A stretch of DNA of 63,161 nucleotides, the filler included, from Diploschistes diacapsis (Eukaryota), in assembly GCA_023645945.1 (NCBI GenBank). It is 20 parts of 20 records of this genome, joined end to end, with 100 filler letters (N's around TTAATTAATTAA, not from the genome) between each part and the next. Parts side by side here need not be neighbours in the genome. Positions count along the whole stretch, not along the records: positions 5,239 to 25,013 come from JALAIB010000361.1; 19 more parts are not named here. One strand, written 5' to 3'. The translations under genes and the position numbers were made by a program. Under the pieces are notes generated by a model. It ran no database searches and was not told the DNA's origin. It saw only the letters and a list, made by a program, of their open reading frames with translations. Of the stretch, positions 1 to 24,605 are shown in pieces (position 1 is the stretch's first letter; the number at the start of each line of letters is the position of its first letter).

Positions 1-522
1 GATCTATATGGCGTTATTTAAAAGATACAGCGTCTTTAAGAATACTATTTTAAAGATTAATAAGAACTTATACGAATTAAAGTAAGTAATAAAGGATTAA
101 TATAAGAAATACGATAATATAATTCTAAATTTAGGATTTAAAAGATGCGACGCCGATCTTTATATCTTTATTTTATAAGGTCGAAAGTTATTAATTAACT
201 TATACGTCGACGATATTATCGTGATAGTACTTAAATTACGAGACGTGAACTGGTTTAAGATAACCTTCGCTGAACGCTATAAGATCAAGGATCTAAAAGA
301 GATTAAAAAGATTTTAAAAATGAGAATTCAGCGACAACGTTAGAGAGTAGTTTAGTTAAATTTTGATTAAAAAGTTTACGTTAAGAAGATGCTCGATCGG
401 TTTAAGATAGCAACGGACACGTATAAAGGTTAAAAGGTCTTATTTAATGGATATAATGGTATTAAATAAAACGATTCGCCTGAATTAACGAACAAAATTG
501 AATATTAAGAAATAATTAATAA
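1..522 (+). mobile_element. RIP-degraded Ty1/Copia reverse transcriptase fragment
   Basis: Translates with stops to ...NKNLYELK...LGFKRCDADLYIF...LLINLYVDDIIVI...ERYKIKDLKEIKKILKMRI (Copia LYVDD). AT-rich and CpA-depleted. Confidence 0.88.
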
Positions 523-869
523 TGAGACAGATCAGCCCAGGCGTGCCAAGCCACCGGGGTCACGTGACGGCAGGGTCACATGACGGCAGAGTCACATGAC
601 GGGTACCAACCGTGCCACGGATGTTCGGGGGTGGTTATGTAGGCGGGTCGGACCCGACCCCCGTAGGGCTGGTACTTATATACTATTTATTCCTGTTATT
701 TTTTTATTTAGATAATTTCTTTTCTAGCTTTTCGAATCGAGACCTTTTATTTATAAATATTTAGTTATATATAATTTTATCGGATCTGGTTTAGTTCCCG
801 ATAATATAGTATTTTATTCCTACGCTAACGTTCTATATTCGAAAAGTTTATTTTATTTTCGTACTCGTG
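523..869 (+). mobile_element. LTR family A 5' LTR (523-835) plus start of internal region
   Basis: TGAGACAG...GTTCTA ends. Homologous to 32006-32323 and 58645-58959, and followed by the same TATTCGAAAAG internal start as 32324. Confidence 0.85.
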
Positions 870-1210
870 TGTTACGATCCAAGTACCAGACTTGGCACGT
901 CCCAGCTTTCTTGTATATAGACCAGCCAAGGTGACGCGGGTCACGTGACTGATAGATGCCTGGTGACAGATGTCTGTCGGGACAGATCTGCTCGGGCAGC
1001 TTTTTATCAGTAACAGCGCTGTCGCGACAGCTTTACTATCGGCAACTAACTATTACTTTAGATTATATATATAAACGTCGCCATGACTCCTATAAATCCT
1101 GATATATTCACTTTTATAAACATCCTTAATTATTACTCGGGATTAATCTATATTCGTTATCTCTATTATTAAAAAGCCTTTCTTTCTAAAGACAGTTTAA
1201 GATCTATAAT
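870..1210 (+). mobile_element. LTR family B (TGTTACGATCCAAGTACC...), partial, nested in family A element
   Basis: Same terminus at 25508(-), 25895, 26989 and a partial match near 36583. Confidence 0.8.
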
Positions 1211-1310
1211 NNNNNNNNNNNNNNNNNNNNNNNNNNNNNNNNNNNNNNNNNNNNTTAATTAATTAANNNNNNNNNNNNNNNNNNNNNNNNNNNNNNNNNN
1301 NNNNNNNNNN

Positions 1311-1451
1311 AGCGCTATCCCACTGAGCCAAAAGACTAACCACAATGCTTTCAGGAACCCCGAAGCACTGTTTCCCTATTACACTATATGTAGGTGCGTG
1401 GCTGTGGCAGCAGGGGGACCTGAACCCCAGGGCGCACCTTTGGGCGTTACA
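1311..1451 (-). mobile_element. LTR family C copy (partial)
   Basis: Reverse complement of the 172-bp LTRs at 37217 and 37638; TGTAAC terminus at 1451. Confidence 0.85.
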
Positions 1452-2009
1452 ATTATAGAAATAATGAATCTAGAAATTTAAACCACGTTTCCGATAATCG
1501 AAACGGAATATGAAACGTAAGGTACCCGTAAGCGAGCCGTATCTAGCGAGTACGTTGTTAACGCTACGAGATATCTTCGATTTAAATCTTTATTTAAATA
1601 TTAGAGATTATTTATAGCGGAATATCGAGAATGTTTTATAATAATTAATAACGCACGGGAAATAAATATATTATATTTATTTATAATTACGTTATAAGTC
1701 CGTTACGCTGCGTAGGCGCTCCGGAGAAATTCTTTAAAATTTTAGTTCGCTTATGAAGTTAAAATCGATATAAATACGATTACGTGAGGTTATTTTAAAG
1801 AATATTTATTTAATTTAATTAAAGATTTAATCAATCGAGAACTAGATGTAACACGCCGGTACGCGGACGCGAAATAAAAGGATAATTAATCCCTAGACAA
1901 GTTCGTGTATTATTTAACGGATATTAAAGAACAGTTCGAGCCCTATACGGAGACGTAACGGCGCCAACATCTTATCTCGAAATTACGGGAACTTCTTTAG
2001 AAATTTATA
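1452..2009 (+). mobile_element. RIP-degraded retrotransposon internal (gag-like) fragment
   Basis: Homologous to 30348-30480 (-). AT-rich and riddled with stops. The gag identity is inferred. Confidence 0.45.
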
Positions 2010-2011
2010 TA

Positions 2012-2520
2012 ACGTGTTTCACGGGGATTCCGGCCACCCCCAGATTCCGGCCACCTCAAATCACTACCGCCAACATTCTACGGTTTTTAGATATAATCTA
2101 TTCGTCGTAATTAGAATCTAATCGATTTAAATCGAATCTATTTTCTTTTTCTTTATCCTTTTCGATTTTAAAAACGCGATAACGTTTTTTACGCGTTATA
2201 GGTCGTTTCGAAATTATTCGATTCGATTTAACTCGAATTATTATCTTAAGAATTTCGTTTATATTAAATATAAAACGATCTTTTAATTCGATTCGTTTAT
2301 TTAATTTACGTTTTTTACGATTATTAAAAAGCGTTTTTTGTTTTCGATTTTCATTACGAAACGTTATAAACTCAATATACGTTAATTTAAGCATACGGGT
2401 TACTCGACTCAACTAACGTCGAATCGGGTTAATTAATTTTAAAACGGCTCGTAACGTTTGATTAAATTCTTTATTAATTTTTCGTAATTCGGTCGCATTT
2501 AATAAAGAATTATATAATAA
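2012..2520 (-). mobile_element. pogo/Fot1-Pot2-Tan1-type DNA transposon, right end with RIP'd transposase C-terminus
   Basis: TA then TIR ACGTGTTTCACGG with internal repeat (TTCCGGCCACC)x2. Homologous to 28082-28939 and 36880-37042. Confidence 0.85.
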
Positions 2521-3196
2521 NNNNNNNNNNNNNNNNNNNNNNNNNNNNNNNNNNNNNNNNNNNNTTAATTAATTAANNNNNNNNNNNNNNNNNNNNNNNN
2601 NNNNNNNNNNNNNNNNNNNNTTCATTATTTGTTAAATTAACGAAAAATCTTTGCTTTTTTCTTTTTTCTTTAATAACGATCGAAGTTTAATTAAATTATT
2701 AAGTATTGAATTCGTCGATTTCTTTTATTAATTTTTGACATTTAATAGTATCGTTATTTACGTTATTAAACTTAGTCGAATCTCTCGTAATTTTTCGAAA
2801 TCCAGCTAAATCGTTATTTACGTTATTAAATTTAGTCGAAGATTTTATTAACTATCGAAGTTTAATTAAACCTTAATGCTGAATCTTTTCGACTCTTATC
2901 CGCTATCGAGAATGAATTACATCTATTACTGAACCTACTCGATGTCTTCGTTATCTTCGAAATCTAGCAGAATCTCTACCTTCGCTGCTGGACCTTTCGA
3001 TTTTTTCGTCAATTTTCGATATTTAGTCAAACCGTTACTTACGCTACTAGATCTAATCGAAACCTTCGATAATTATCGAGAATTTAGCTGCATTTACTGC
3101 TGAACCTGCTCGATATTCTTCGACAACTATCGAAAGTTCGGCTGAATTAATGCTGAATTTATTCGATCAAAAAAGGGAATAAGATGGAGAATAACT

Positions 3197-3540
3197 TGTT
3201 TAACAAGCGGGTTACTTCGTACGAAGCCACTAATTTACTAGAACTGGCCTAGGTTAAAAGATTTAGTTGGACTAGATATGCTAGACGCTTCCGCCTGTGG
3301 GGGAATATTAAGCGGACAGGCAGAAGGTATGGTAGGCTCGATCCAACTCCGGAGGGTTCAGTTTAGGTAACCAGGAAGTTTAATTCAGCTGAACTTCCCT
3401 CCCGAATCTGCTGGAATTCGGACTAGACCGGTTAGGTCAGTAGTCCTTAACGCACACCGTGGAGGATAAAAGTCTGCACAGTAGGATACTTCCTAGGATA
3501 AGACCTGTAGACTTCAATATATCCATTACGTTGCCAAACA
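3197..3540 (+). mobile_element. LTR family D (TGTTT...AAACA, probably Copia-type)
   Basis: The 3' end GATAAGACCT(G/C)TAGACTTCAATATATCCATTACGTTGCCAAACA recurs at about 4686-4729, 31792-31836 and 59971-60003(-). Confidence 0.6.
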
Positions 3541-3626
3541 TAAATAACTAAAATTTATTCTCGATTATTAAATTATTTCGTACGAGATCTATTTTTGCGA
3601 TCTAAAATAGTTACGATTTTTATATA

Positions 3627-3829
3627 ACGTGTTTGACGGTCAGCTCGGCCACCCCCAAAGCTCGGCCACCTCACATTGCGATATTCATCATTCTTTCGGT
3701 TTTTCTCGATAATGGCCGCTTCGTATCGAAATAACTTGATATTATTAAAATCGGATATTAACGACTGTCTATAGATTCTAAATTTTTAATAATATACTAA
3801 CATTCGAGCGATCGCCCGCGTATTTTAAG
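3627..3829 (+). mobile_element. pogo/Fot1-type transposon left end with transposase N-terminus
   Basis: TA+ACGTGTTTGACGG TIR with (GCTCGGCCACC)x2, then ATG MAASYRNN...NIRAIARVF (degenerate psq-type HTH). Confidence 0.85.
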
Positions 3830-3929
3830 NNNNNNNNNNNNNNNNNNNNNNNNNNNNNNNNNNNNNNNNNNNNTTAATTAATTAANNNNNNNNNNNNNNN
3901 NNNNNNNNNNNNNNNNNNNNNNNNNNNNN

Positions 3930-4028
3930 ATCTTTGCCGGTTTCGCAGGTTTCGCCAGTTTCGCCAGGTTTCGCCCGTTTCGTCTGTTTCGCTAGAAAAA
4001 AAATTTTGCCCGAAAATCTTTTCGTGAT
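3930..4028 (-). mobile_element. End of unclassified TIR element (CATCACGAAA terminus, GCGAAAC subterminal repeats)
   Basis: Same terminus and repeats at about 31775(-), 36486 and 59843. Confidence 0.6.
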
Positions 4029-4030
4029 GT

Positions 4031-4340
4031 AATAATACGTTAAAAATCTATTATCGTATAATTAAGAATAAAAACACGTTATAATAATTAACCGTTCTAA
4101 GAATAGAACTTTAAAAAAAGAAAGTAATTATAATACGTAAAACCCAATAAGGGCTATTAAAGAATATATTAAATATATACCAAAACCCGCTAACGTGTTC
4201 TTATATAAAAACAGAGTTTTCGTAAATAAAGATAGTTTTTCAAAAATTATTTCATTAATACATCTATCGTTTAGCAGAGATCTAGCCACCGAATAGCCAC
4301 TTATCTGCCTTATTGTCACACTGTAGTATTAGCCTTTACA
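4031..4340 (-). mobile_element. LTR family E (TGTAAAGGCTAATACTACAGTG...)
   Basis: Reverse-complement homolog of 34950-35259. Confidence 0.65.
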
Positions 4341-4759
4341 AAAATATTATCGAAGATTATCGCATATTCGGCTTACTAATGCATGGAATAATTTAAAGGG
4401 ATAAAGAACCTTCCAGATTAAATGATTACTAATTACACTAGCGTGAAATGTGCCTATAAAAGGCCTCTCAATCTCCAACTTTCATAATTATCACCTTCAT
4501 CATCTTTAATACAATCACTGAACAATAAGCAGTTACCAGGTTAGGCAGGCTAGGGATTATTTCTTAGTTAGGACTAGCTGCAGAATATATCTTAGTCATT
4601 TTTTATTAGGAACTTCCACCACTTGCAACATAAGGCTTAACGGATTCCGTGGGGATAAAAGTCTATAAAATAAGATAGTCTTCTAGATAAGACCTCTAGA
4701 CTTCAATATATCCATTACGTTGTTAAACACATCTCATATGGTGGTCGGTTATTCTATTA

Positions 4760-5138
4760 ACGTGTTTCACGGTCAGCTCGGCCACCCCCAAAGCTCGGCC
4801 ATCTCACATTGCGATATTCATCATTCTTTTAGATTTTCTCGATAATAGCCGCTTCGCATCGAAATAACTCGATATTATTAAAATCGGATATTAACGATTA
4901 TTTATAAATTCTAAATTTTTAATAATATATTAATATTCGAGCGACCGTTCGCGTATTTAAAGTTTCTCGATCGACTATTATAAATCGATTTAATAAAAGA
5001 TAATTTAATTTTAATAATCACGAATCGGCTTAAATCTTTTTTAATTTAAAAAAAAATTTTAATATAATAAATTATACGTTTTATATAAATCGGCTTTCTT
5101 ATAACGTTTACGTTAATAATAAATATAATCTCAAGAAT
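4760..5138 (+). mobile_element. pogo/Fot1-type transposon left end, RIP'd
   Basis: TA+ACGTGTTTCACGGTCAGCTCGGCCACC TIR; homologous to 3627 and 36460(-). Confidence 0.85.
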
Positions 5139-5292: not shown

Positions 5293-5927
5293 TTGAAGTC
5301 CCAGATCGTGACTATGAGGTCGCGCGTGGCGGCGTGCAGGTGGGTGCGGATGTGCGAGACGAGGGAGTAGGCTAGGAGGTCGGAGGGGGCGCTCTCAAAG
5401 CCTGATTGGGGGATTATCTGGACGGGAGAGGGGTTGGAAGGTTAGTGGGCGTCTTTCTTAGCTTCGAGAAAAGCACACAGAGAGAATGAGAGGGTAAGTT
5501 GCTGCAAGCTCACAATAGCACCGCTCCTCTTCGCCGTCGCCTCGTACTTGTCAATCATCGCCTTCACCCAGGGTACCTCGCCCGTGCAGTCGATGTAGTG
5601 CGTGCCGTTCTCCGCGCAGGCTCTTACCACGGGCTCGCTGTAAAGGTGGTAAGGGCCGACGACATTGATAAGGACTGTTGTTCGCTTGGCTAGGTCTTCG
5701 AGGTCGGTGGGATCGAGGGTGCATATTTCTACCCGAGCCGGCTGGCGGTTGGGGTTCAGAGGCTTCATGTCCGAGATGATGCGCTCGAGCTTGGTGGCGG
5801 AGCGGCCTGCTACGGCCCATTTCAGGTCTGTTGGGAGCTGCTTCACGATGTGCTCGGCCGTGTATCTGCCCGTGTAGCCGGTCGCGCCGAGGAGGACGAT
5901 GTCGTATTCTCGGCCTTTTGAAATCAT
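5293..5927 (-). CDS. Saccharopine dehydrogenase-like oxidoreductase, 3'-truncated by contig end (exons 5927-5514, 5417-5293)
   Basis: Rossmann YDIVLLGATGYTG, WAVAGRS, INVVGPY and HYIDCTGE motifs. GT-AG intron joins in frame to IIPQSGFESAPSDLL. Confidence 0.9.
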
Positions 5928-6541
5928 TATTGAGATGTTCTTCCTGTAATATTATTGAGAATCTTTGTTTGGATGCGGAGAACGTCGACGCGCGTGACTC
6001 TAGGGTGATATTCGTGAAGATGCTCCTTCAATTGATATACAAATTTTAATGCTTTTCATCGCAAGAACAATCACCGTCTTAGACAAGCAGAGTCTATGAC
6101 TTTTAAAGGTTCAGAAATGATACTTACTGAAGGTACTTCTACTTCTTGTATAGCCAGACCTTCGAGCCTCGGCAGACAAGCATTTGACAATCTCAAGTGT
6201 GATGCCGGATGTCACCTTGAAACAAATGTATCAAGATAGCGTGGCATCCGTTGATACGAGTAACACGGGTCCGCCATGTCTGGAATCTGCTTTGAGCCTG
6301 TTCTCAACGTGGGTACATCTCGTTAACGGATGCTCCCACGTTCCCTCGGCATTGGTGTCCTCGAAAGCGATAACACGCTATGATACTGAAAAGCAAGGCG
6401 GATAAGAGCGTTGAGCAGAGTCTAACTTGGGTATCATTATCCTATTTATTTCACGTCTAGTTGTGCCTTCTATAGTATAGCCGTATCATACATCTCACCT
6501 AATGCCTATACAATGCTGTCCAGTACGAGTCCATGCTATGC

Positions 6542-8381
6542 CTATGCTCGCTGTGATTGCCTCAAAAGGAAATAATACGAAGTCGCCGCCGTACCAGCTG
6601 CCGACAGCAGCATCAACTGCAAGCGCCACGCCGGCGCAAACGCCGTGGAAAAGTACCTCGCGATTGCCGCAGCCGCGAGCGCTACCCAGCACACCACAGC
6701 CGTGATGGCCCGGAGATGATCCCAGCCCCCGCCTTTGGCCTTTTGCGCTTCTTTCTTGTTGCGCATCGATGTGCCCCAGCCACCTTCTAGAGCAGTAGCC
6801 GTGGAATAAACGATGATCCCGGGCAGCGGCAACTGGTAAAAGATTTGCGAGATGGCGAGGAAGAGCCAGCTGCAGACGTGGCGGCGGTTGCAGAGGTAGT
6901 TGTATGTCGTGCATAGCGCGATACGGAGGAAGAGGTCTACCAGCGAGTACGCGCGGTTGGAATCGCCGTGGAAAACGTAACGGAACGTTACGACCATGAT
7001 GCTGATGGGGCCGTAGAAGCGGTTCATGGCGGTGATGAAGAAGATGGGGCCGTGGATGGCGTAGACTAGGGGATACTGGAAAGTTTCGATCTGGTTGGCG
7101 CGGGCCCAGCGGATTTGCTGGAGGAGCCAGCGGAGGAGGGTGGTGGGCGTGTCTGTGAAGGCGATGGCCTCGGTGTTGAAGGTCACCTTCCAGCCGTCGA
7201 GGAGAAGATTGGTCGTGAGGTGGCGATCTTCATTGACTATCGTTTTGATGCCCAAGGAGGTTTGGACGTACCAATCGAAAAGGTTAGGCTGCAGCGCCGA
7301 CAGCCGAAACGCAGCGCATGGGCCAGGCTGGCAATCGACGGCATCGATTGCTCCTGTCTGACCCCGAGTAATGGCCAACTCGCTCCAGTATGCAGCAGAG
7401 CCTAGCGAAGCGATGAAACTGTCGTTCTCGTTATGAATCGAAAGTGACGAGCATGAGCCACCAATCTTTGGGTCTGAAACCATGCACCCTATAGTCAATG
7501 GTAGTGTCTCTGGAGTTACCCACGTATCACTATCACTAGTCCATAGGTAAGAGATGTCGTGGGTTTGGCCCAAGACCCAGGAGAAGACGAAGTTCGTGAA
7601 CATAATGCCTTTCTTGCTGATGTGCGGTTGGTAGACGCAAATTGCGCGGAACGAGCTATCGTAGGGGTCCAGCGCGTTGTGCTCTTTGAGAATTTCGACA
7701 GCCCTTGCATAGACCATGTGCATCGCATACTCCTTGGCCTCGTTCCTGAGCTCGCGAGGAATATCATGAAATGTCCAGCCGGCCGGTAGGTAAGCCAAGT
7801 CTGTTTTGCCCAGTTTGGATAGAATGTAATCTTTGGCCAAGCGTACAGCCGTGACCCCAAGAGGCTCCTGCAGCCCTATGAAGAGAATATCCTGTGGGAA
7901 GACCTATATATCTATAAGTCCTTGTTCATCTTAACATTGTAGGCCGAAGTACCTTGCGAACAATGTTCGCCATCTCCATGTCCTGAGCTTTGTTCCCATC
8001 AATGCCCACAAGCAGTAGTTCCAGACCAGGGCAATCACGGTAACTTTCCAAGCACTTGGTAAAGAGACCTGGCTCTTCACGGTAGCCGACTACAGAGGCC
8101 ATGCACCTGGCGTACGAGGTCTTCGCGAGTGCTCCCTTCTCTACATCTGATGGCGCGAGTTCCTCCTGTAGCCGCCTGACTCGGCGCCTGCTCCTCCTGC
8201 GGTTGATTTCGGCAAGACTGATTTGCCAGGTGGTCTCCATCGTGATGGGAAAGATAAAGACATGTTTACGAATGTATCCAAAAACAAACAAAGCTAGGAG
8301 CAAGCAAAGAACGACGTTGACGGCCTGTTGCCTCCAGGAGCGTTTCAGCATGCCTGGCTTGATATCAACTGTGGAGAACAT
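6542..8381 (-). CDS. Processive GT2 glycosyltransferase, hyaluronan-synthase/NodC-like (exons 8381-7953, 7903-6542)
   Basis: VVGYREEP..FTKCLES, GIDGN, SDSDT, PGPCAAFR, EDRHLT and QQIRW (D,D,D,QxxRW) motifs. One N-terminal and several C-terminal TM helices. 49-nt GT-AG intron keeps frame. Start codon uncertain. Confidence 0.9.
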
Positions 8382-9033
8382 TACACTTGATGCAATGTAC
8401 AACTAAAGAAAGCTCTAAACGAGTGACAATAGGGCTTCCACCACAGATGAAGAAAGAGCGAGCAGACTGTTTCAATACTGCTCAACACACAGCACAGCCG
8501 CGCTGCTGAGATGCAAAAGAGGATATAGCGGCAGGGCCAGCTCTTGAGGCGGCATGTTAACTTAAGGAATCGCAGAAAATCACTAGAGAAGTTAGAAGAC
8601 CTTCAAACCCAGCCTTGCTAATAACTATGATGGGTTTCGCCCTCTCCAGACGACCCAAATCTAATAGTGAAGTAGCTGAAACAGAGCCAGGAACACCTGT
8701 TCGTGAGATAGATGAGAAAGAGCGTAGGTTTCCGGCCAGCCCCCAAAAACAACTTGCACGGTGTGGTAATTTACGGTAAGAAATAGGCGCTAGCGGAAAG
8801 ATTGCACGAAGGATTCAGCCTTATGTCTAACTTCGACTTCTATCCCGTGTTTGTAAGGCCGTGTTCATGCATGCATGCAACTTCGCGCTGCTGCGGAAAT
8901 GAGCACAGGTTCGCTGGTGTTCCCACGTGTATGCGTGTGTGAAGCAGAAGACCATGGGTGAAAGAACCTCATACCCCTTATTCGTCCTTGCTTTGTTGAA
9001 AATCTCTCCTAGCTTTCCTTATGGTGCACGTCC

Positions 9034-10618
9034 ATGTCTCCGTTCCGCCTGCCTAAGGTCTTCATAGCGGCCAGTCTCCTCGCCTTTGTATTGCTCAGCT
9101 TCTTGATATCAATACTACGTCGCACTGATGAAGAGTTCCGGGGCAATAAATATAATGCCTTTGTGGATGCGGGAGAGCAAACCGAAGAACGACCAACCTC
9201 CACCACCCTTGTTCGAGGAGCCTCTACCACGTTGATTCATATCGTCACTCCTTTACCACCTGCAACGCTTGCCGCGTCTGGCAGTGACGAGCATACCGCA
9301 AGTGCGATCGAGGAAAGCTCTACTACATCAGGCATCGCGTCGCCATCAGACGTAGCTCTTCTATTAAAGACTGGCTCGAGCAACGTTTGGCGTCGGCTGC
9401 CACTTCACTTGCTTACCACGTTCGCGAATGCTCGAATTCCCAATTATGCCATCTATTCCGATGTAGAGGAACGGCTGGCTCCTGGCATTAGAACTATCGA
9501 TACCATAGCTAACGTCTCTCAACTGCTTCGAAAGCATGATGCCAACGCCTACGGGATCTACCAAAGTCAGCAGGATGCTATACGGCCTGATATCTACCGG
9601 GAGCAATCCGGTCTCACGGGGGACACTCTGCCACCTGAAAGCGAAGACGGAAATCCTAAAGGATGGGTTCTGGATAGATACAAGTTCTTGCCAATGCTCG
9701 CTCATGCTTATGGAACTTGGCCTCTTGCCAAATGGTATGTCTACATGGAAGACGATACCTACCTATTCTGGCACAACATCCTCCAGTGGCTAACTCTGGA
9801 ATCTTCAAGTGAGGCTGTTTATTATGGTGCCAGCTCCGGGGCCAACAATGCTACATTTGCGCAAGGCGGATCTGGAATCATCTTTTCAAATGCTCTGATG
9901 ACAAAGCTGTTCGCGTCGGACCGCGTTGCTGATTTGAATGCCTATGGAGATTTTACCGCAAAATCGTGCTGTGGCGACATCATCTTGGGGAGTGTTTTGC
10001 GTGACTATGACGTCAAAGTCAATCGCGGAGAGTTTGGAAGCCTGTCCTTCCGCCCAGAGCCTCCTTGGCGGACAAGGTTTGACGTGTCGGTTTGGTGTGA
10101 GCCAATCTTTACGTTTCATCATCTGCATCAGCAAGACGTGGCGGGGCTATCGGAACTCGAGGAGGAGCTCCTCGCCGATAACGTGCGTTTCTCCTATACC
10201 TGACTCAAGGTTACATGTGCTGACTCGTCGACAGCGTCGAAGAGTGCTTTTCCGCGATGTCTACATGAAGATGATAGACCCCTATCTTCGGTCGGATGAG
10301 GTTTCTGATTGGGATAACTACGCGGATCTATACGTTCTGAAAGCGAACGAACCAATACCGATAGCATTACAGGACAGCGCTCTGGACCTTCAAAGCGCAG
10401 TCGTCACAAGCAGCGGCTGCCGCAACGCATGTCTTGGTATCACTTCCTGTTTCTCGTGGCGCTTCAGCGATCACACATGCTCGCTGGACACTGGCATCAA
10501 GCTAGGCAGAGCCATATCAGCCTCTACGAGCGACAGGCCGGCCGTAGTAAGTGGGTGGATCCTGCCAAGACTCAATGAGACACTTCTCTCTCATGAATGT
10601 TGGGGCTTCCGCGACTGA
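9034..10618 (+). CDS. GT31 (Fringe/C1GalT-like) glycosyltransferase with C-terminal PAN/apple-like Cys motif (intron 10183-10234)
   Basis: Type II TM anchor; LLLKTG, LDRYKFLPM, WYVYMEDDTY, FAQGGSG, CCGD, WCEPIFTFHH motifs; CRNAC...CFSWRF...C. Confidence 0.88.
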
Positions 10619-11462
10619 GGCCTTCTTCGATGCGCAAATCAGATACGAGCTCGACATTGAGCGACCCAGCCGGTCACCTCCCATTTGAGAGAAAATGGCA
10701 GGCACAGCCTCCACAAGCTAGATGAACAAGCATTCGAGGCCAAGGCCAAGCGGACGATGCGAACCCAAGTGCGCACAGCTTCGGCAACTGCTCAGTACAC
10801 TTTAAGTCGCAAGGTCATGACAGTCACGACACCACGACGCAATGTTCTGGCGAACGACATCAATTATAATTTTGGACACGGAATACAGCCTATATCAACC
10901 GAAGAAAGTCCACACAGTATGGCACATTTGGTGCAGAACGAATCACTATTCGTATCCTCTTCATTCCAGGCGCAAGGCTGTAAAGATTTGGGGGCGAGTA
11001 TGAGATTTATCCACATTCTACCATCTACATCTCGCCTATCTTCGCTGCAATCAGAGGGACCGTGGCACCAGTGGGTGATAGAATTCCGTTACACCTCCTC
11101 AGCATCTTTCTAATGGTATGACAGCCCAATTGTTACTTCTCAACTGCTTCAAGACTTTTGGTGATCCATTACTGGTGGAGACACTTGAAGCCGAGCTGAT
11201 AAACAAACTGGCTGAACTTACCAACGACATGATCTATTCTAGGTATGTCTGCGGACTTGGCGGACTACCTAGTTGCGTTTCCGCGGGCGAGGAACACGAA
11301 TAATGTGAAATGGCGGTGATCATCTCAACCCAGTTGAAAATTACAAGACAATACGCTCACTTTCTGACTAAGCCTCTAGGGCTGACTAAGCTCACTTTCT
11401 TCGGTATATCTACCTCCCTGGGTCTCGGATTTTTACGAAGTTGCGCGAAACTGGAATTAAAA

Positions 11463-13034
11463 ATGTACGAATATTCTAGGGAGAAGTTTGTCCCGGCAGC
11501 TATGTCTTTGCGCCGTCTGCTGCCGCGGCATGCAAAGGGCTACCTGTGGATATGTTTCTTGGTATTAGTGTTTGGATCAATGATCTTGTCTGACAACGGC
11601 TTTTCTCCCTATAGCATCCTTACCGCACCATTTGCAGAAGGTTTCTATGATACATTCGACCACGGGCCCGTGGAAGCCAATGTGCACTCGGTAGCGAGCG
11701 ACCCAGTGCCTCCGGTCGGTCGGCCTCCGCTGCCATCCACTGGCATACCTCGGCCGGCGGAAGAAGTACGCAAAGGAGTACCGGTGGAAGGGCAGGGAAA
11801 AGCTTTGGTATTTGGCAGCGGCGCTACCACTTTCACACCAGATGATATCGTCATTCTTTTCAAAACCGGCGCAACCGCACTATGGCGCCGAGTCCCCATC
11901 CACCTCTCTACATCCTTCGCCAACTCCTCCCTCGTTCCCAACGTCATCTTCTACTCTGACAACTCAGACCACATCGCGGGACGCCCTATCGTTGACGTCC
12001 TGGCCAACGTCTCCTCCACCCTCAAAGCCCACCCGGACTTCGAGCTCTACCACAAAGTTCAAGAAGCCCACCAATCCAATCTCTACCTTGAAGCCGCAGC
12101 AATCGATGGCGACTTCTACCTCCCCGGTGGCTGGCGGCTAGACAAGTACAAATTTCTGCCTCTAGTCCAACACGCCGCGGCCAATTACCCAGGCAAGAAA
12201 TGGTATGTCTACATGGAAGACGACAACTACCTCTTCTGGCACTCGCTCTTCGCCTGGCTCGGCACCTTCGACCCCTCCACCCCTCTCTTCCTCGGCTCCC
12301 CCGCAGCTCGGCTCGGTGAAGACTTTGCCGGCGGGGGCTCCGGCTTCGTCATCTCCGGCGCGGCCCTGGAAGCCACGTTTGGCGGCCACCCGGACCTCGC
12401 GGACAAGTGGGAGTCCTACGCCCAGGAGCGTTGCTGCGGCGATCAGGTCCTCTCGCACGTCATGGCCGAAATGGGCGTTCCGCGGGACCGCCGGTACGAC
12501 AACACGGGCTGGGCTGGGCTGCAGGCGCTGCCGACGTGGAAAATGGGATTTGGGGAATGGAATTGGTGCAGTCCGCTGTTCAACGTGCACAAGACGCACC
12601 AGGCCGATGTGTCGGAGCTGTTTGTCTTCGAGAGGAGGTTCCAGCAGATGCACGGGGAGCGGGCGGTGCTGAGGTACAGTGATTTATTTGTGGAGATGGT
12701 GCTGCCGTATCTCGTGGCGGAAAGGGTGGAGTGGGACAACGAGGCGAGCCAGAAGTGGTTTGCGTCGGGGTCCGAGGATGCGGAGGCGCTGGGGAAACTG
12801 TCGAAGGCGGAGAGGGAAAAGAAAGCTTGGTTCTCGGCGAAGTCGTGCAAGCTAGCGTGCAAGGAGTGGGAGGAGTGCTTGACTTGGAAGTACGCGGATG
12901 ATAATTGTGGCTTGGCGAGCACGGTGTCGAGAGGCAGGAAGGTGGATGCGGGGATACTGATGAGGAGTGGGTGGATGATGGGGAGGATCGAGAGGCTGGC
13001 GGAGGGGAAGGACTGCAAGGGCTTGGGTTACTGA
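11463..13034 (+). CDS. Second GT31 glycosyltransferase with PAN/apple-like C-terminus
   Basis: TM anchor; ILFKTG, LDKYKFLPL, WYVYMEDDNY, FAGGGSG, CCGD, WCSP motifs; CKLACKEWEECLTWKY..C. Paralog of the 9034 gene. Start could be 11310, 11463 or 11502. Confidence 0.88.
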   Translation: MYEYSREKFVPAAMSLRRLLPRHAKGYLWICFLVLVFGSMILSDNGFSPYSILTAPFAEGFYDTFDHGPVEANVHSVASDPVPPVGRPPLPSTGIPRPAEEVRKGVPVEGQGKALVFGSGATTFTPDDIVILFKTGATALWRRVPIHLSTSFANSSLVPNVIFYSDNSDHIAGRPIVDVLANVSSTLKAHPDFELYHKVQEAHQSNLYLEAAAIDGDFYLPGGWRLDKYKFLPLVQHAAANYPGKKWYVYMEDDNYLFWHSLFAWLGTFDPSTPLFLGSPAARLGEDFAGGGSGFVISGAALEATFGGHPDLADKWESYAQERCCGDQVLSHVMAEMGVPRDRRYDNTGWAGLQALPTWKMGFGEWNWCSPLFNVHKTHQADVSELFVFERRFQQMHGERAVLRYSDLFVEMVLPYLVAERVEWDNEASQKWFASGSEDAEALGKLSKAEREKKAWFSAKSCKLACKEWEECLTWKYADDNCGLASTVSRGRKVDAGILMRSGWMMGRIERLAEGKDCKGLGY

Positions 13035-13845: not shown

Positions 13846-14882
13846 TGTGGAACATGTTCCCTAGTAAGGGGTGGACCATCGCAATAGGAAGTGATGATTC
13901 GGCTCAGCCTCACTTTGCCGCCAACAGCGGAGGTTCTGCCGCTGAAGGTCAACAGCCGATGACATCGACACCGTTGAGCAGACTCACGATCAACCTTGCT
14001 ACCAGGCTCTTAAGCAATTGAGAAAATCTCAACCCTGGGAGTACGTTCCGGAAAGAACGTCCACAGCGTGAGAGCAACCAAATCAGCAATATTTTCGAAG
14101 AGCAAGGGAGGCCCTGAACTGCTCCAAATTCTTCTCGAGTACATCCGGAGCGCAGACTAGGGCAACCTACAAGTACTCAACACTCTTTCGCTCTATTGAG
14201 ATGCGTGGACGCCTCATTGCCGCCATACCAAGGCTGTTATTACCGCAGGAAATATTGCTTCAAGATACATCCGGAAATGCCTCTGCTGCGCTGGCTGTGG
14301 TGCAATTCTGTAGCATAACTTTCTACAGAGCTACGCCGGGGTATTAGGGTGCACGGAGAGTCAATCATATAGGCAAATTTGTGATTGCATTCAGCATATT
14401 TCTATACCAGATATAATACAACTCGACTCACTTAAACAGACAAACCATCTAAAGTTGCTTATCATGTTGTTTATGCATTATTGTCGAGATCTGATCTACG
14501 AGCGCTTGTAGAAAGGGATATTAGCGCCAGCACTAATAACCTGAACTGAGATAATAATATTCGAGCAGCGGTTCACGGTAGGAAGTGCTTGTTGCTCGAC
14601 TATCCTGAGCCACCAGCAAACGCCGAAAATTCTTCAAAAGTCACAGTCCTCGGGTGTTCACATCAGACAACATGGATTAGGATAGGTGGGTGGTCGATTT
14701 GGGCGCTAATGCGCTCCATATCTAAGAGCCTCGTTGTGCCCGATTAGTTCACAGCCTTCCCCGTCCACAGAAACATGGGAACTTACTGTGAAACGCTACT
14801 AGACCTTGCTACGACTTCCTTTGCTTTGCTAATATATTCTTTTGCCCATCTGACACCGCGAAAAAAATACCAATGCCGCTTC

Positions 14883-17307
14883 ATGGATATCACCAGCCCT
14901 CGAGTTGGCCTCTGGAGAGACTATAGTCGCGGACCTCTGGACCAATGGCAACTGCTCATACCAGACTACTGGGCTCAGTGGATACTGGCTTTTGTCGCGG
15001 TATGGCTGACCCTCAGTACCCGCTATCTGGGTAGAATTCAGTGTAATGCTATCGTTTGGCTTTATCTGAAGTGGACTGGTGGTGGCAGCGGCAGTGGTTC
15101 TGGAAATTCTAACGCTCAAAGATCTGGACAAACTGCGGCATATCTTGAGCAAGAGCACTTACTGCCGAATGCAACGGATCGGCAAGATTATGGTACAAAT
15201 CATGCGTCCAACCGTGAGCTCCATGGTGGATTAGGGAGAAGTAGTCCGGAGTCCCGCGCTAATGCCACATCGCAACCGCGCAATGCCTCCGAGACTGCTC
15301 CAATTTCATTACCAGACGAACAACGGCCCACTCTCGGCGATAACTATGCTCCTAATAGTACGCCACCAGAGCAGGATGAGCCAAGGGACTTCATGGTTAG
15401 CGTGCTGGAAAGCTCCGAGAGCAACCGCCAGATTGTGTGGAGGTTCGTCAGACATGCGTTCAAGGAAGGCTTTGAACCCTCACAAGCTACTGGAGTGGTA
15501 TTCGTCACATCAGTGCTTTTCGGGCTCTTCATCGCCTGGGTCATCGCGGGCCTGTTCTCCGCAAGGATCGCGACAGACCGAGCAGCGCTTTCATCCTCCA
15601 CAACCTGCGGAATCTGGCAGTTCGACGATGAAGATGCGGGTGACGAGGCGGCTTACCGTGACCAGCTTCACGATTATCACAAGGAGGCAACTGCTGGACA
15701 ATACGCTCGAAACTGTTACAATGGCACGGGAGAGGACTCTGCAGCTTGCAGCATGTTCTACCAGCAGAGCATCCCTTACTACGTGAAACGTCTCCAAGAG
15801 TGCCCTTTCAGTGCGGAGCTCTGCGCCAAAGGCCTCTTTACTGCACTTGAACTGGATACGGGTCAAGTCGATGCCATGACAATCTGTGTCAATGCTCGTC
15901 CAAGTTTCAAGTTCCGTCGAAATACGGTATGCTCCCCGCTCAACATGAGTAGTGAGTACATTAAGCAGACCATGGCCTATAAAAATGTCAGTACCTACAG
16001 GTACTACTACGGACCTACAGAGCATGCCAAGTATACATTTGAGACGACAGGTGATGCATTCCAATGGCTGGATCCAGCGTATTCGGTCAAGTGAGTCCCA
16101 ATACTTTTCTTTTACAGCACATTCGCAGCAGAATAGAACCTTGCATGGCCTAAATGGTTCACAATCGTGATATCTTCGGCACCTAATTAATTTTGAAACT
16201 TGATGGGGTTTGAAAAATGTGTTTTGAAAAGAGCCCCATTGGCTCTGAGAATCTAAAGCTGTTGAAGATTCGGCAACGCTACCCATGTCTTCCCTTATTC
16301 AAAGTCATATCCCTTAGGACCAAGTTTCAATCGTGGAAGGGTGTCTACTGAATAAGCCCAGCATCTACTTCTCCTCCAACTACCCCGAGCTCGATTACTG
16401 GCTCCCCCGCCCCGAGCTCCGCAGCTCCCCCTCCACCTCACTATCCACTTCCACCCTAACCATCATCTTCGTCCGCTCAATGCACATCTACCACACCAAC
16501 CCGAGTTATGACCCCATCTTCCCAGCTCATGAAGCCAAATTCTTCCCCAACGACAACGAGCCCCTCTACTACAACTCCGACCCCCGGGCGCGCGTCTTCG
16601 CCTGCGTGGACGCCACCACCCTCGCCTCCCCATCCGGCGACGAGTCCTGGCCCCTGACTGCTCCCGCCCCTGCTTCCGTCCACGTCGGCCCAGCCTACTG
16701 GCTGACCAAATGGTCCCTGGAATCCTCCACCGTCTACGACGCCCTAGCATGGCGTCTCGGCCGCGCCCTGCTCGCGCAGGAGAGCATCGGGCAGTCCGTC
16801 GCTTCAGGTCAGTTGCACGCTTCGCGCCAGTGGGAGGACGAGGCGGAACATCTCTTCGCCACCTCGCTGGCGCGGATCCAGTTCGACGCGATGGCGATTG
16901 CGACGGGGGCGGGTAGGGAGAGGCCGGGATATAGAGACATGACGCCCGACGAGGGGAGGGGGAAGCTCTGTGGGCTGTGGAAGTTCAAGACGGTGGGGTA
17001 CACGAATGTCAATGTGGTGACGCTGGCGGGGTTGGCGGCGGTTTTGCCGGTGGCGGCGGTGCTGAGCTCGGAGTGGGGAAGTGTGACGTGGGTGTGTGGT
17101 GGCCGTTGTGGAGGGAAGAAAGGGGGATGGGAGAGACAGTTGGTGATTTTTGTCCTGTTTCAGGAGGGGTGCCGGGTGCTGGCGACGGGCGGAAAGTGGG
17201 TGGCAAGGCCGGTACTCTGGCTTTTTCGCAGGCTGTGGGGTTTGTGTGCCGGGTCGATGGGTCGATGGCGATGCCGCGATGGTGAAAGCGAGGACCATGA
17301 AGCGTAG
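14883..17307 (+). CDS. Uncharacterised multi-TM fungal protein with Cys-rich luminal region (intron 16091-16361)
   Basis: ORFs 14775 and 16333 join in frame through a GTGAGT...CAG intron. TM segments at the N-terminus, middle and C-terminus. Start could be 14775 or 14883. Confidence 0.75.
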
Positions 17308-17644: not shown

Positions 17645-18495
17645 CTAGCACGCCTTGCCCACCAGCACCGCAGCCGTGTCACGACTGGACACGTTAGCCA
17701 CACACCCGCCCTGCACACAGCCCAGTCCCTCTCCCATCCACACTTCCCTAACCATGATACGCCGACCCCCCCAAAGGCCCGGCACCTCCATCCAGTTCGC
17801 GACCTTCTCCACCGTCCCATTCCCCGGATTCAGCATAAGCACCAGCCTCCCCCCTCTGCAAAGCCCCAGCCACGTCTGCTTGAACATACAGTCCGCGTTC
17901 GCACCCCACTTGTACGGCTTCGCCGGCGTGCCGTAGACGGCGTCCTGGCCAAACGCCAAGCAGGTGCTCATTCTTCAGCAGCGCGACATTCTCGTCCTCG
18001 CCCGCTAGCTGCGCGATGTCCGTGCCGATGAGCACCGGGACTCTTCATGGCGGCCTAGAAGGCGAGGTCGACGCTGCCCAGCCCGAGGGAGTTTCTCGTC
18101 CAGGATGCGCGTCACGTCCGTCCAGGCCGGCTTGATGTCGTTGCTCGTCCGCCACGAGATGTCCGTGTCCCCCCCCCGGGATGCAGAGCGAAAAGAGGAT
18201 CTCGTTGGGCTTGCCGGACCAGCGCCTCGCGCATGCGGGTGAAGCGGATGGCGCTGTTGGACGTCGTCCAGTCGTAGGCCGCGGGCGCGAGGTCCGGGTC
18301 CAGCTGCGTCGTGCAGGTGCCGTTGGCCGGTCGTGCTGACGTAGTAGTACCGGTCGCAAGCAAGCGACGTACTGATCCGTCCAGTTGGCATGGATCTTGG
18401 TCTCGAGGCCGTCGATGCCGTCGGGGAAGGCTGTCGTGTTGGGCTTCAAGTGGCCGTCTGTGCGGCCCGTCTTGTTCGACCAGCAGTGGTTGTTA
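17645..18495 (-). pseudogene. GH27 alpha-galactosidase pseudogene
   Basis: Fragments in different frames: HCWSNKTGR..PNTTAFPDGIDGL, SWRTSNDI, AAMKSPVLIGTD, AFGQDAVYGTPAKPYKWG, VREVW.GEGLGC. Deletions and frameshifts; DDCW motif is mutated. Confidence 0.85.
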
Positions 18496-18779
18496 AAATG
18501 ATAAGTTGGGATCCCATGATACTCTAAATGGTGCTGACTTTACGCTGTTAATAAATGAACTCCAAGGTCTCAATTCAAACTAGCTTGATACGCGTAAAAG
18601 TTTTGTAGAAGCCTGCAAATCTCGGCATGCAGATTCAACAGTCGTCGAGGTTGAGGTAGGTGTACGCATTTCAAGTATGTATTCCAAGTATCCAACAGCG
18701 CGACCTAGGATCTAAAAGCCAACGACAAAGAATCAGACGTCTCTATTGACTTGGATACTCCTTTGGACAACTTTTTTCT

Positions 18780-21189: not shown

Positions 21190-22130
21190 TGGTTGCACCG
21201 AGAATATCCCAAGGCTCATGGCGTATCACCATGACTTCAAAGAACCCACAAAAGGCGTCGTTGAGCACACTGCTATATCCAAGCAGATTGCCGAAAACCC
21301 TCTCATGCAAGACTGGATCTTTTTCGTGACTACCGAATAGTGGCGATCTGCTCCTCGCGTTGTCGATGCCATGGTCAAATGGCCTGGCTCGCAAGAGCTT
21401 GAGCATACTGGTTGGACGCTCGCAAACGAAACAACCCTGCCGCTCGTGCAGGAAAATCATGAAACATCCTCAACGCCTGGCGCGTATGCTAGGTGCCATG
21501 CAGATGTCCGAGCAGGGAGACGGCCTCGAAATCGACCACTTCATCGATAACTTCGACTGGACTGGCGGGGCAGACTTTCGTGAATGTAGGCGGGAGCCCA
21601 TGGCTCCGCAGCTGTAGCTGTGGCCAGAAGGTATTCCTCCATCCGTCGTGCTGTCCAGGATCTCCCGTTTCGTGCTGGCAACTGCAAAGGCGCCGGAGGA
21701 CGTTTCGGACCGCGTCGAGCTCATGCCCCAGAACTTCCACACACTGCAGCCGATCAAGGCTGCGGACATTCATTTCTTGCGCTGGATTTTGTACAATTGG
21801 AGCGATAAATTCGCTATCAATATACTACGCAACCTTATCCCGGCTTGGAAAAAGGGCGCCAAGATCATGGCCAACGAGTTCTTACTTCCAGAGCCCGGCG
21901 TGCTGGATTACGGTAAGGCATGATACAAGTCAGAGCTTTGTTTTTCCAACAGCTGATGTACATTGCAGCAACTTTGACCTCTTAATGAAGCAAATGATGA
22001 ATGCATAAGAACGGGAGATAAATGAATGGGTAGCGCTATTTGCAGCGGCTGATCCAGGCTATAACTTGACCAGTGTCCAAGTCCCTCGAGGTTCAAAGCT
22101 GGCAGTCTTGCAGGTCGTATGGGAAAGAGA
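21190..22130 (+). pseudogene. Fungal SAM-dependent O-methyltransferase pseudogene (5' limit uncertain)
   Basis: FKEP..GVVEHTAIS, FVNVGGS, QNFHTLQPIKAADIHFLRWILYNWSD and EWVALFAAADP motifs. In-frame stop at 21338 and several frameshifts. Confidence 0.85.
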
Positions 22131-22787
22131 ATCTTTATGTTCGAGTCCTCTCATAAGAATTCTACAGGGCGTTTGAATAGGGGGTAAACACGAAATCTGG
22201 CTCATCAAAGGGTATCGCCAAAGCTTTCCCGTAAGACCGGGTTTGATGCACCTGATGTTCCGAGCATTCTCCAGCATTTATTGACCACCTTGCCCTAGAT
22301 TACTTGACCATTCGAGCATCGTAATAGATTAAGTAGATTAAGAACAGCCGAGTAACACTACCGAGAACCCAGGCATAGGCAAGCCTTGATACTAGTATAT
22401 AGAGTGGGCTCAGCGGTACTAAATTGGCGTTTTGCAATATCACACTGGCCTATGTGGCGATCTTATACGGATTCGCGCACCATAGTAAATACAGGGCTGC
22501 TGATAATTTTTTACATTATAAATGACAGAAGCTCTACTCGATCAAGAGCAGGTCCAGCATATAACTCAAAGCAAGTTTTTTAAGTGTTCTCGATGTATGT
22601 CGAGTCTAATATGGTGGACCTACCATAATGTGTCGGCAAAATAATTGAGTCAGCCCTATATTTGTACGGAGAGTGAGCGGAGCAGGTAGTTGCTCCTGAG
22701 TTAAACAGGGCGTATTTTGATATTTCACCATTTTCATGGGCCATCAGCCTCGCAGATCCCAATCCCTCAACATTTCCTTTTTGCGCG

Positions 22788-23490
22788 ATGCCTTTCTCAC
22801 TGCCAACTAATCCCCCCGCTGCAAGCGACGAAGACTGCGCCCTCTGTCACGAACCTCTTCTCGTCCCTCGCAGCAACAACGGGCAGCCCTCGTACCTTAT
22901 CGATGACGTTGAATTCCGCTGCAAGCATCACTTTCACTGGTCCTGCATTCTGGAGTATTCCATCTCCTCGTACGATGCACGCAATCGCTGTGCTCTTTGT
23001 AAACAGAGCGTACTTGATCCCCGAGGCGAATTTATCGTCAAGGTACGAAACGAAGATGGGGTTACCACTGGGTTTGATTTCGGTCATGAAATCGACCGAC
23101 ATTTGTTTTACAAGGCGAGTCTCGCAAAGGCAGCTACAAATTTCCCAAACTTCCATTCACCATGCATAGGCCAATCCTGAAGCTGAAAGAGCGACGACAT
23201 TCCTGTCTTTGATGTCGCAGATGGAATTCTCAGACGCTGAGCTATTCCTCAAAGGCGAGGATCCAGATGCCGGTGGAAAATTGGACCCTAATGTTTGCTA
23301 TGACGGTGGTGGAGTAACAGCTCTGCATATGGCCGCACTGAATGACGATGTGGAGGGGATTCAATTACTTCTAAAATATGGCGCAGACAAGGACTTCAAG
23401 TCAGAAGACGGTCAAACGGCACTTGACATGGCTAGGGAGGCACACTCGGAAAGGGCAATTGCACTGTTGACACCTTATGGAAAAGAATAG
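22788..23490 (+). CDS. RING-H2 finger plus ankyrin-repeat protein, about 215 aa (GC-AG intron 23115-23169)
   Basis: CALC...CKHHFHWSC...CALC; GVTALHMAALND..LLLKYGAD, GQTALDMA. The intron joins the two ORFs in frame. Confidence 0.8.
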
Positions 23491-24314: not shown

Positions 24315-24424
24315 TATAAAAATCTTCAAAATATTAATAATAATAATTAATTAATGATTATATAATCATAATATTACGTAATATTTAATTATTATTATTA
24401 TTATTAACGTATATGCATAGCGAG

Positions 24425-24605
24425 TGTAAAGGGTGGAATACGACAATGTGGCAAGATGGCTGTACGCAGGGCATATTCATGCTAGGACTAATTACTAAAG
24501 AAGAGGAGAGAGTAAGAAAAGCAAAATCCCCCTTCAAGTACCCGCAAGCCAAGACCCTGAATGCCGCTTATCCGATTATTGGTATACTTTTTGCTTGGCC
24601 TTACA
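24425..24605 (+). mobile_element. LTR family G, 181 bp (TGTAA...TTACA)
   Basis: Inverted termini; reverse-complement copy at 25114-25292. Confidence 0.8.

Follow-up and report, generated by a model that had tools for sequence, protein, structure and literature searches.

A hyaluronan-synthase-like GT2 gene and two GT31 genes form a candidate glycan-biosynthesis module in Diploschistes diacapsis and other filamentous ascomycetes

Fungal wall and matrix polysaccharides beyond chitin and glucans are poorly assigned to genes. In the Aspergillus galactosaminogalactan (GAG) cluster, co-located genes serve the production of one secreted polysaccharide and encode a GT4 synthase, an epimerase, a deacetylase, and hydrolases. 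To our knowledge, no hyaluronan synthase (HAS) gene is paired with a gene of glycosyltransferase family 31 (GT31). Among the fungal synthases of glycosyltransferase family 2 (GT2), Cps1 and ZtGT2 are described, in the accessible parts of the respective reports, as enzymes of approximately 52-56 kDa that have one membrane helix at the N-terminus and two at the C-terminus; they have been compared to hyaluronan synthesis, and Cps1 has a paralog, Cps2, that is missing in S. sclerotiorum (PMC5653360, PMC9500679). The wall or matrix product of Cps1 is given there as still unidentified (PMC9500679). The CHS8/CV-ESV class, according to the portions at hand of the papers on it, carries a QRKRW motif and clusters with cda1 and the UDP-GlcNAc 6-dehydrogenase gene UNGD (PMC7053769, PMC5122149). 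For GT31 enzymes, the available part of a structural account defines motif V as (E/D)DVxxGx(W/C) and states that, in GfsA-type galactofuranosyltransferases, Gly replaces the Glu/Asp that contacts the pyranose donor in other GT31s (PMC11538602). Here, we compare with these systems a locus of Diploschistes diacapsis that harbors one GT2 gene and two GT31 paralogs, GT31-1 and GT31-2.

The three genes are located at positions 6542-13034 of the window, by which we mean the whole stretch of 63,161 nt that was analyzed (20 parts of assembly GCA_023645945.1, joined end to end); this region belongs to record JALAIB010000361.1. All three are intact, with the GT2 gene on the minus strand and both GT31 genes on the plus strand. 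The original prediction, made from the sequence alone, had placed three intact glycosyltransferases here, with a divergent gap of about 650 bp between GT2 and the first GT31; our gene models, the open reading frames (ORFs), and the Pfam matches agree with it, and the distance between the two start codons is given in Table 1. The region between them presumably acts as a bidirectional promoter. The GT2/GT31-1 gap and the GT31-1/GT31-2 spacer have no k-mer of 10 or more bases in common, and they have six 9-mers in common vs. 4.0 expected.

Table 1. Coordinates of the glycosyltransferase genes and of other features in the window.
Feature	Position	Strand	Description
Saccharopine-dehydrogenase-like NAD(P)-binding exon	5442-5951	-	Pfam match; one flank of the cluster island
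GT2, class-I hyaluronan-synthase-like, 596 amino acids (aa)	6542..8381	-	Exon 1 8381..7953 (143 codons); intron 7952..7904 (49 nt, GT..AG); exon 2 7903..6542 including stop; assigned by gene model, motifs, Pfam, and profiles
Divergent intergenic region	8382..9033		652 bp, GT2 start codon to GT31-1 start codon
GT31-1, 510 aa	9034..10618	+	Exon 1 9034-10182; intron 10183..10234 (52 nt, GTGCGT..AG); exon 2 10235-10618
GT31-2, 510 aa, single exon	11502..13034	+	Frame open from 11310; 11502 is the likely start
Two long ORFs, 439 and 329 aa	14775-17307	+	Frames open
GH27 alpha-galactosidase remnant	17645-18539	-	Split over three overlapping frames
Partial O-methyltransferase domain	21493-22008	+	Methyltransf_2 E 3.7e-6, profile positions 109-171 only
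RING-finger and ankyrin-repeat gene	22677-23490	+	Pfam match; other flank of the cluster island; looks intact

The GT2 protein is equal in length to its ortholog P0006 (596 aa) and aligns with it from end to end. It carries the motifs DSD267, EDR368, QQIRW405, and WGT519, the first three of which are invariant in alignments of 20 and of 40 homologs. Exon 2 matches the Pfam families Glyco_trans_2_3 (1.2e-9) and Chitin_synth_2 (4.3e-9), and the protein atlas places GT2 in generic GT2 clusters only. Using phmmer, we found the protein to match Xenopus HAS1 (XlHAS1; E 5.4e-27) and the Chlorella-virus HAS (CvHAS; 1.2e-23), with the DSD, EDRHLT, QQxRW, and WGTS motifs all in register in the alignment to HAS1. 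A profile built from 40 members of the GT2 family matched CvHAS at 1.5e-47 and XlHAS1 at 1.5e-43. The best chitin synthase match of the same profile was P. sojae Chs1 at 1.4e-8.

For the structural comparison, we modeled the ortholog P0006, which is 68% identical to exon 2 of the window GT2 (pLDDT 85.3, pTM 0.87). The model places two helices (15-39 and 44-74) ahead of the GT domain and seven more between residues 428 and 595. In a VIA comparison, the top 13 entries were all HAS, with Z-scores of 28.9-33.5 over 420-474 residues including the membrane part; CvHAS was matched at Z 33.5 over 432 residues and XlHAS1 at Z 31.5 over 460 aa, corresponding to model residues 7-569. Beyond HAS, the best scores were those of PcManGT (Z 25.4), BcsA (24.7), and ScChs1 (24.6). 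In the model, the single-chain architecture with its own predicted transmembrane channel superimposes on solved HAS structures. The first reading of the sequence had called GT2 HAS-like, and phmmer, the family profile, and the ortholog model together make its assignment as a class-I HAS-like enzyme well supported.

GT2 has in common with the class-I enzymes CvHAS and XlHAS1 the DSD, (E/D)DRHLT, and QQxRW motifs and the WGT(S/R) gating loop, and the P0006 model covers 432-474 residues of them, including the membrane channel, at Z 30.8-33.5. It differs from them in that the structural alignments show just 20-23% identity to the GT2 ortholog and in that the GT2s of the clade to which the window protein belongs (clade A, see below) have approximately 30 extra residues in a GT-domain loop. 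The product of HAS is an alternating GlcA/GlcNAc polymer, whereas the window GT2 is likened to HAS by sequence and model. A fungal chitin synthase of CHS divisions 1-3 was ruled out, given profile matches of 1.4e-8 vs. 1.5e-47 for HAS and Z-scores of 24.6 vs. 33.5. Membership in the CHS8/CV-ESV class, likewise composed of fungal GT2 proteins with HAS similarity in a small conserved glycan gene cluster, was also ruled out, since GT2 has a QQIRW instead of a QRKRW motif and has GT31 neighbors; no chitin deacetylase or UNGD domain was found among the window ORFs scanned.

Like GT2, Cps1, ZtGT2, and Cps2 are filamentous-fungal synthases for which no wall or matrix product has been assigned. With its 596 aa, and with two N-terminal and about seven post-GT helices in the ortholog model, the window GT2 differs from Cps1 and ZtGT2. 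In addition, S. sclerotiorum is reported to have Cps1 only, yet its protein SS1G_06158 belongs to the window GT2 family; SS1G_06158 is not mentioned in the full-text literature that we searched. We considered whether the GT2 clade of approximately 40% identity represents ZtGT2/Cps1 and rejected this on size and topology, the two being set apart by published descriptions. The accessible parts of the papers on Cps1/ZtGT2 and on CHS8/CV-ESV mention no GT31 partner (PMC5653360, PMC9500679, PMC7053769, PMC5122149).

In GT31-1, a signal-anchor helix near the N-terminus (residues ~9-27) is followed by a GT-A domain of the Fringe-like type that contains EDD239, and the C-terminus is PAN-like and rich in Cys. 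GT31-2, when translated from the likely start, has the same length as a 100%-identical database protein (P0121) and comprises a signal anchor (11-31) and a disordered stem (51-92), followed by a GT-A domain (~100-400) with E239-D240-D241 and G313-D314 and by a PAN/Apple-like domain (~405-510). The two proteins are 36% identical over 281 aa (E 6e-59), and both have a single hydrophobic helix near the N-terminus, i.e., a type-II layout, as well as an E-D-D in the DxD position. Both exceed the gathering cut-off of 21 for Pfam Fringe (24.7 bits, 1.7e-5, for GT31-1; 26.3-26.8 bits for GT31-2), and 42 of the 44 members of their family match this domain. An AlphaFold2 (AF2) model of GT31-2 (pLDDT 86.7, pTM 0.78) has a well packed C-terminal domain. 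Using Foldseek and VIA, we found that the top 18 entries for this model are all GT31 enzymes with Z-scores of 15.8-21.2, including the CHSY3/CHPF chondroitin polymerase (21.2), C1GalT1 (19.6), Manic Fringe (17.9), and GfsA (16.0), as well as B3GalT5/6 and B3GNT2. Outside GT31, the nearest family was GT14 at Z 11.0, with the other GT-A families at 11 or below. By the Fringe domain and, for GT31-2, by the GT-A fold, both proteins belong to CAZy family GT31.

In profile searches, the GT31 family matched Fringe, B3GLCT (1.2e-9), C1GalT1 (6e-6), AfGfsA (2.1e-5), and CHSY3 (3e-4). The window proteins share with the characterized GT31 enzymes (CHSY3/CHPF, C1GalT1, Manic Fringe, B3GLCT, and GfsA) the GT-A fold at Z 16-21, a putatively metal-binding E-D-D at DxD, the GxxFxxS of motif IV, and, as aligned to B3GLCT, the Asp of motif V. 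They differ from them in low overall similarity, the best match (1.2e-9) covering motifs II-IV only, in the added PAN/Apple-like domain at the C-terminus, and in adjoining a GT2 synthase gene. As for this C-terminal domain, PAN_4 reached E 0.017 in GT31-1 and 0.037 in GT31-2, under the cut-off, while 12 of the 44 family members match PAN_4 at E <= 0.01 and two match PAN_1. The C-terminal part of the family profile found the apple domain of Toxoplasma MIC4 (E 0.0039) and Eimeria MIC5 (0.51). The two genes had originally been labeled GT31-PAN: the Fringe/GT31 part of this label is firm, and the PAN part is weak, since the window scores fall below the PAN_4 cut-off.

The E239-D240-D241 of GT31-2 aligns with the DDD of C1GalT1 and B3GLCT. 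In a single pairwise HMMER alignment to B3GLCT, on which the motif V mapping rests, D314 is placed at the second Asp of 'PDDMVLGMC', such that 'G313-D314-QVLSHV' lies over 'DDMVLGMC'. Position 1 of motif V, Glu/Asp elsewhere, is taken by Gly313, which is invariant in 44/44 family members; the Gly-Asp appears as 'CCG313-D314' in GT31-2 and as 'CCGD' in GT31-1. Thus, both window proteins resemble Aspergillus GfsA in having a Gly ahead of the catalytic Asp, whereas the profile match to GfsA is weaker than those to B3GLCT and C1GalT1 and its Z-score lies at 16.0 vs. 21.2 for CHSY3. The prediction had treated both as typical beta-1,3-Gal/GlcNAc transferases; they are GT31 enzymes, but the Gal/GlcNAc label is doubtful because of this Gly. 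The Gly-Asp motif suggests that the donor sugar may be unusual, possibly a furanose.

The locus was found in three sequencing runs, a lichen metagenome (X1, probably the source), 'organism A', and a rock metagenome (X3), none of them recorded as RNA. Contigs of run X2, from a near-identical relative (~97-98% identity), cover all three genes. They differ by at least 12 indels, and those listed are all located outside the coding exons, i.e., in intergenic sequence or upstream of the GT31-2 start. In the GT2 coding sequence, the listed ones among at least 36 substitutions introduce no stop codon. A low-depth X3 contig skips 254 bases (8820-9075), comprising part of the divergent region and the GT31-1 start codon; this gap may reflect either variation between strains or an error of assembly.

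To follow the linkage of these genes in named genomes, we read it from NCBI locus tags among the matches of three protein searches. GT2, GT31-1, and GT31-2 have consecutive tags in Agyrium rufum (MMC25_000822/823/824), Sclerotinia nivalis (OCU04_005374/373/372), and Ciborinia camelliae (NHQ30_003044/043/042), and the GT31-1 ortholog occupies the central position in all three. The tags of GT2 and GT31-2 differ by two in Clarireedia jacksonii and Diplocarpon rosae. The two GT31 genes have consecutive tags in Mollisia scopiformis, Mollisiaceae sp., Monilinia laxa, and M. fructigena, and in M. vaccinii-corymbosi all three genes are on one contig within a span of at most 21 tag numbers. In eight further pairs of a GT2 and a GT31 match, both come from contigs of equal length.

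In addition, we scanned metagenome contigs with the GT2 alignment, which yielded 31 loci, and placed the window proteins on them by tblastn. Two loci (L001 and L002), with GT2 proteins ~60% identical to that of the window, contain the full triad in the same order and on the same strands. Eleven more, with GT2 proteins of 33-42% identity, contain a single GT31-PAN gene divergent from GT2. Counting as informative those loci with at least 2 kb upstream of GT2, a divergent GT31 neighbor is present in 13/13 loci of GT2 clades A and B; eleven of these are distinct (L010 equals L011, and L016 equals L017). L007 has a GT31 fragment at the contig end, and L003, L006, L014, L019, L025, and L026 are too short to judge. 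Distant GT2 relatives were seen on the long contigs L027 (24%) and L028-L030 (33% identical in the best segment), and no GT31 or AT3 gene was found within 5-9 kb upstream of GT2 in these four.

One more recurrent neighbor emerged from an all-against-all comparison of the ORFs, namely a membrane acyltransferase of the Acyl_transf_3 family (AT3; E 1e-17 to 1e-22). AT3 is divergent from GT2 in 5/5 informative loci of clade C (L013, L020 as a fragment, L022, L023, and L031) and is located just past GT31 in the Eurotiales-like clade B loci L016, L017, and L024. Beyond GT2, GT31, and AT3, no family is common to the loci except among close relatives. Within the window, we found no AT3 gene (best tblastn E 0.18). 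Hence, three glycan-related families travel together while their surroundings change, and the same genes are co-located in distant genomes with differing flanks. The conserved linkage that had been proposed as a check is therefore present, with the triad in Lecanoromycetes and Helotiales and the GT2/GT31 pair across fungal classes.

A quick maximum-likelihood tree of GT2 (73 rows, rooted on the distant L027) resolved three ascomycete clades. Clade A (21 rows, SH-aLRT 98) contains the window protein together with Thelotrema, Agyrium, Helotiales, Botryosphaeriales, Diplocarpon, and Coleophoma and has the triad where the arrangement is known. Clade B (34 rows, SH-aLRT 84) comprises Eurotiales and Sordariomycetes with a single GT31, and clade C (14 rows, SH-aLRT 99) comprises Dothideomycetes, Xylariales, and a second Monilinia copy, with no GT31 in the flank. 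In the GT31 tree (53 rows), GT31-2 (SH-aLRT 99), GT31-1 (100, on a long stem), and the clade B GT31s (99) form separate groups, whose branching order is supported at 83 and not resolved. Lecanoromycetes and Helotiales are both represented in each of the GT31-1 and GT31-2 groups, which dates the duplication to before these lineages separated and shows that neither copy was lost. The GT31 genes next to GT2 could have been ordinary dispersed orthologs, which would have counted against the initial proposal, but in the tree they form orthologous subclades of their own. The ancestral unit is a GT2/GT31 pair, plus AT3 in some lineages, and one clade gained the second GT31 long ago. A protein of the Sordariomycete Chaetomium strumarium (P0196, B0T15DRAFT_537846) is 64% identical to GT31-1, vs. 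44-56% for the Helotiales orthologs, and stands beside the window protein inside the lichen-fungus group; this could reflect gene transfer, contamination, or odd retention.

The GT31-PAN architecture itself represents a large family, with 347 representatives at E <= 1e-30 and 1276 at E <= 1e-3, and extends into some Saccharomycotina yeasts. The GT2-linked genes are particular subclades of this broad family.

Taking these observations together, we estimate a probability of roughly 0.6 that the three genes are one co-inherited glycan-biosynthesis module of filamentous ascomycetes, serving one secreted glycan. The shared product of the enzymes, its compartment, and its chemistry we infer as follows. 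GT2 would be a membrane-embedded processive synthase of the class-I HAS build, with a cytosolic GT-A site and its own transmembrane channel; it would polymerize a beta-linked chain from cytosolic UDP-sugars, probably containing N-acetylhexosamine (HexNAc), and translocate it across the membrane to the luminal or outer face. The GT31 proteins would be type-II enzymes anchored in the membrane, with both the catalytic and the PAN-like domain in the lumen of the secretory pathway, and would attach either two distinct side residues or a branch of two sugars to the GT2 chain, with the PAN-like domain possibly holding the glycan. In other lineages, the cluster-encoded AT3 would O-acylate the product. 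Plant Golgi hemicellulose synthesis, in which a GT2 backbone synthase operates with type-II decorating transferases, may serve as the closest working analogy. A more specific version is possible, and we put it forward only tentatively: an ancient AT3-GT31-GT2 cluster that builds a hyaluronan- or chitin-like backbone in the secretory pathway and equips it with unusual side residues, possibly galactofuranose, and O-acyl groups, resulting in a new matrix polymer.

Several points weigh against a common pathway. Enzymes of the HAS type are thought to act at the plasma membrane, and luminal GT31s need luminal nucleotide sugars, so that direct decoration of the chain would require an active GT2 in the membranes of the Golgi or of vesicles. 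The GT31-PAN family is so large that many of its members must have unrelated jobs. A GT31 gene is found in the flank of 0/5 informative clade C loci, meaning that this type of synthase can occur with no GT31 gene beside it. The top GT2 and GT31 matches of Macrophomina phaseolina MS6 are on separate contigs (MPH_01588 and MPH_01461), and those of Cudoniella acicularis are on contigs of unequal length. Adjacency of locus tags gives neither strand nor distance. The GT2 structure model is that of the 68%-identical ortholog, the window GT2 itself being compared by sequence, and the listed X2 substitutions in the GT2 coding sequence are 17 synonymous and 19 non-synonymous.

The properties of the GT31 proteins also fit a different explanation, namely that they are Golgi protein O-glycosyltransferases of the Fringe/C1GalT1/GfsA type and that the linkage to GT2 arises only from a bidirectional promoter and co-regulation, e.g., during wall remodeling. 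Most of the characterized GT31s with the best matches (C1GalT1, Manic Fringe, B3GLCT, B3GalT6, and GfsA) modify glycans attached to proteins, a type-II topology suits Golgi glycoprotein processing, the GT31-PAN family is not only large but mostly dispersed, and the clade C GT2s lack a GT31 neighbor. We nevertheless regard this explanation as unlikely, since specific GT31 subclades stay beside GT2 in Lecanoromycetes, Leotiomycetes, Eurotiales, and Sordariomycetes (all 13 informative loci plus the named genomes), and since the best structural match of GT31-2 is the GT31 domain of CHSY3, a glycosaminoglycan polymerase (Z 21.2). The presence of AT3 in the neighborhood is likewise explained better by a polysaccharide substrate common to the enzymes than by co-regulation on its own. 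The chance that the co-location is merely inherited synteny of unrelated genes, with no functional meaning, appears very slim, and this reading is already disfavored. Gene order in fungi is kept over short evolutionary distances, and the locus-tag evidence comes mostly from one order, the Helotiales; in contrast, the GT2/GT31 pairing spans four classes, both GT31 paralogs have been kept since before the Lecanoromycetes/Leotiomycetes split, and the glycosyltransferase genes are retained while the flanks change, the window neighbors being unmatched in the 31 loci.

The AT3 neighbor bears on one further alternative, in which the GT2 products are short molecules resembling chito-oligosaccharides, like those of NodC, and are decorated by the GT31s and, in other fungi, by AT3, leading to a diffusible signal instead of a matrix polymer. 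AT3 enzymes include Nod-factor acetyltransferases, and short chito-oligosaccharide synthesis has also been argued for the vertebrate DG42/HAS. GT2 matches Chitin_synth_2 and has the EDRHLT and QQxRW motifs of HAS/NodC-type enzymes, and the window fungus is symbiotic, with run X1 labeled as a lichen metagenome. The enzymes making fungal lipo-chitooligosaccharides are, in the part of the source available to us, described as unidentified (PMC5122149), which leaves room for such a role. However, the ortholog model can be superimposed on processive HAS along the whole chain, channel included (432-474 residues, Z 30.8-33.5), neither the window nor the loci examined showed a gene for a deacetylase or an N-acyltransferase, and a cytosolic oligosaccharide would not meet luminal GT31s. 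We therefore consider a diffusible signal improbable, and a module for one secreted glycan is the reading that we prefer.

In its kind, this module appears to be a small fungal polysaccharide cluster around a processive GT2, and in the literature searched it appears undescribed: the full-text search returned no paper on a cluster of a HAS-like GT2 with GT31, with or without AT3. The available part of a Trichoderma blue-light paper reports one GT2 and one GT31 that are both down-regulated, given there with no gene IDs, and a Podospora non-self paper gives family counts only (GT31, 2/5 up). A lichen CAZyme preprint, a paper on the Blumeria wall, and two reviews of chitin synthases had no bearing on the module. 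The GAG cluster of Aspergillus is similar in being a small co-located gene set for one polysaccharide and differs in that its enzyme families are entirely other; none of them was seen among the window ORFs scanned. None of the 120 GT2 matches listed came from A. fumigatus, A. nidulans, N. crassa, Fusarium, or Magnaporthe, and this may be why the module has gone unnoticed. It is present in tractable fungi such as Botrytis, Sclerotinia, Monilinia, Trichoderma, Penicillium, and relatives of Podospora. With a synthase of HAS architecture tied by deep synteny to dedicated GT31s, and elsewhere to AT3, the module offers a defined set of three to four genes. For lichens, it is a concrete candidate for matrix polysaccharide biosynthesis by the fungal partner, and, if this holds true, the polymer of the lichen fungus could belong to the gel that holds the thallus together.

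The three genes are part of a gene island of normal GC content at ~5.4-24 kb (Table 1). Downstream genes had been predicted to be decayed, which applies to part of them. In the GH27 remnant, one ORF matches Melibiase_C (E 5e-5) and another a fragment of Melibiase_2 (E 0.014), and it is probably a pseudogene; the O-methyltransferase stretch, one of two overlapping frames, is probably a decayed or multi-exon gene. The frames of the two long ORFs and the RING-finger/ankyrin-repeat gene, on the other hand, look intact. The long ORFs have no Pfam family, and for the first one (14775-16094) the protein atlas gives only ascomycete 'hypothetical protein' clusters. Neither these ORFs nor the saccharopine-dehydrogenase-like exon has a counterpart in any of the 31 metagenome loci. 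Between gene islands of GC ~0.5, the window contains AT-rich blocks (GC 0.25-0.35) at 1-5000, 24000-37500, and 58000-63161, which look like regions of repeats degraded by repeat-induced point mutation (RIP) in a filamentous ascomycete. A second gene island at 38130-57109 carries housekeeping genes, namely AATF/Che1-TRAUB (Bfr2-like), Med7 in two exons, Dbf4, an RFX-like ORF, and Atg13.

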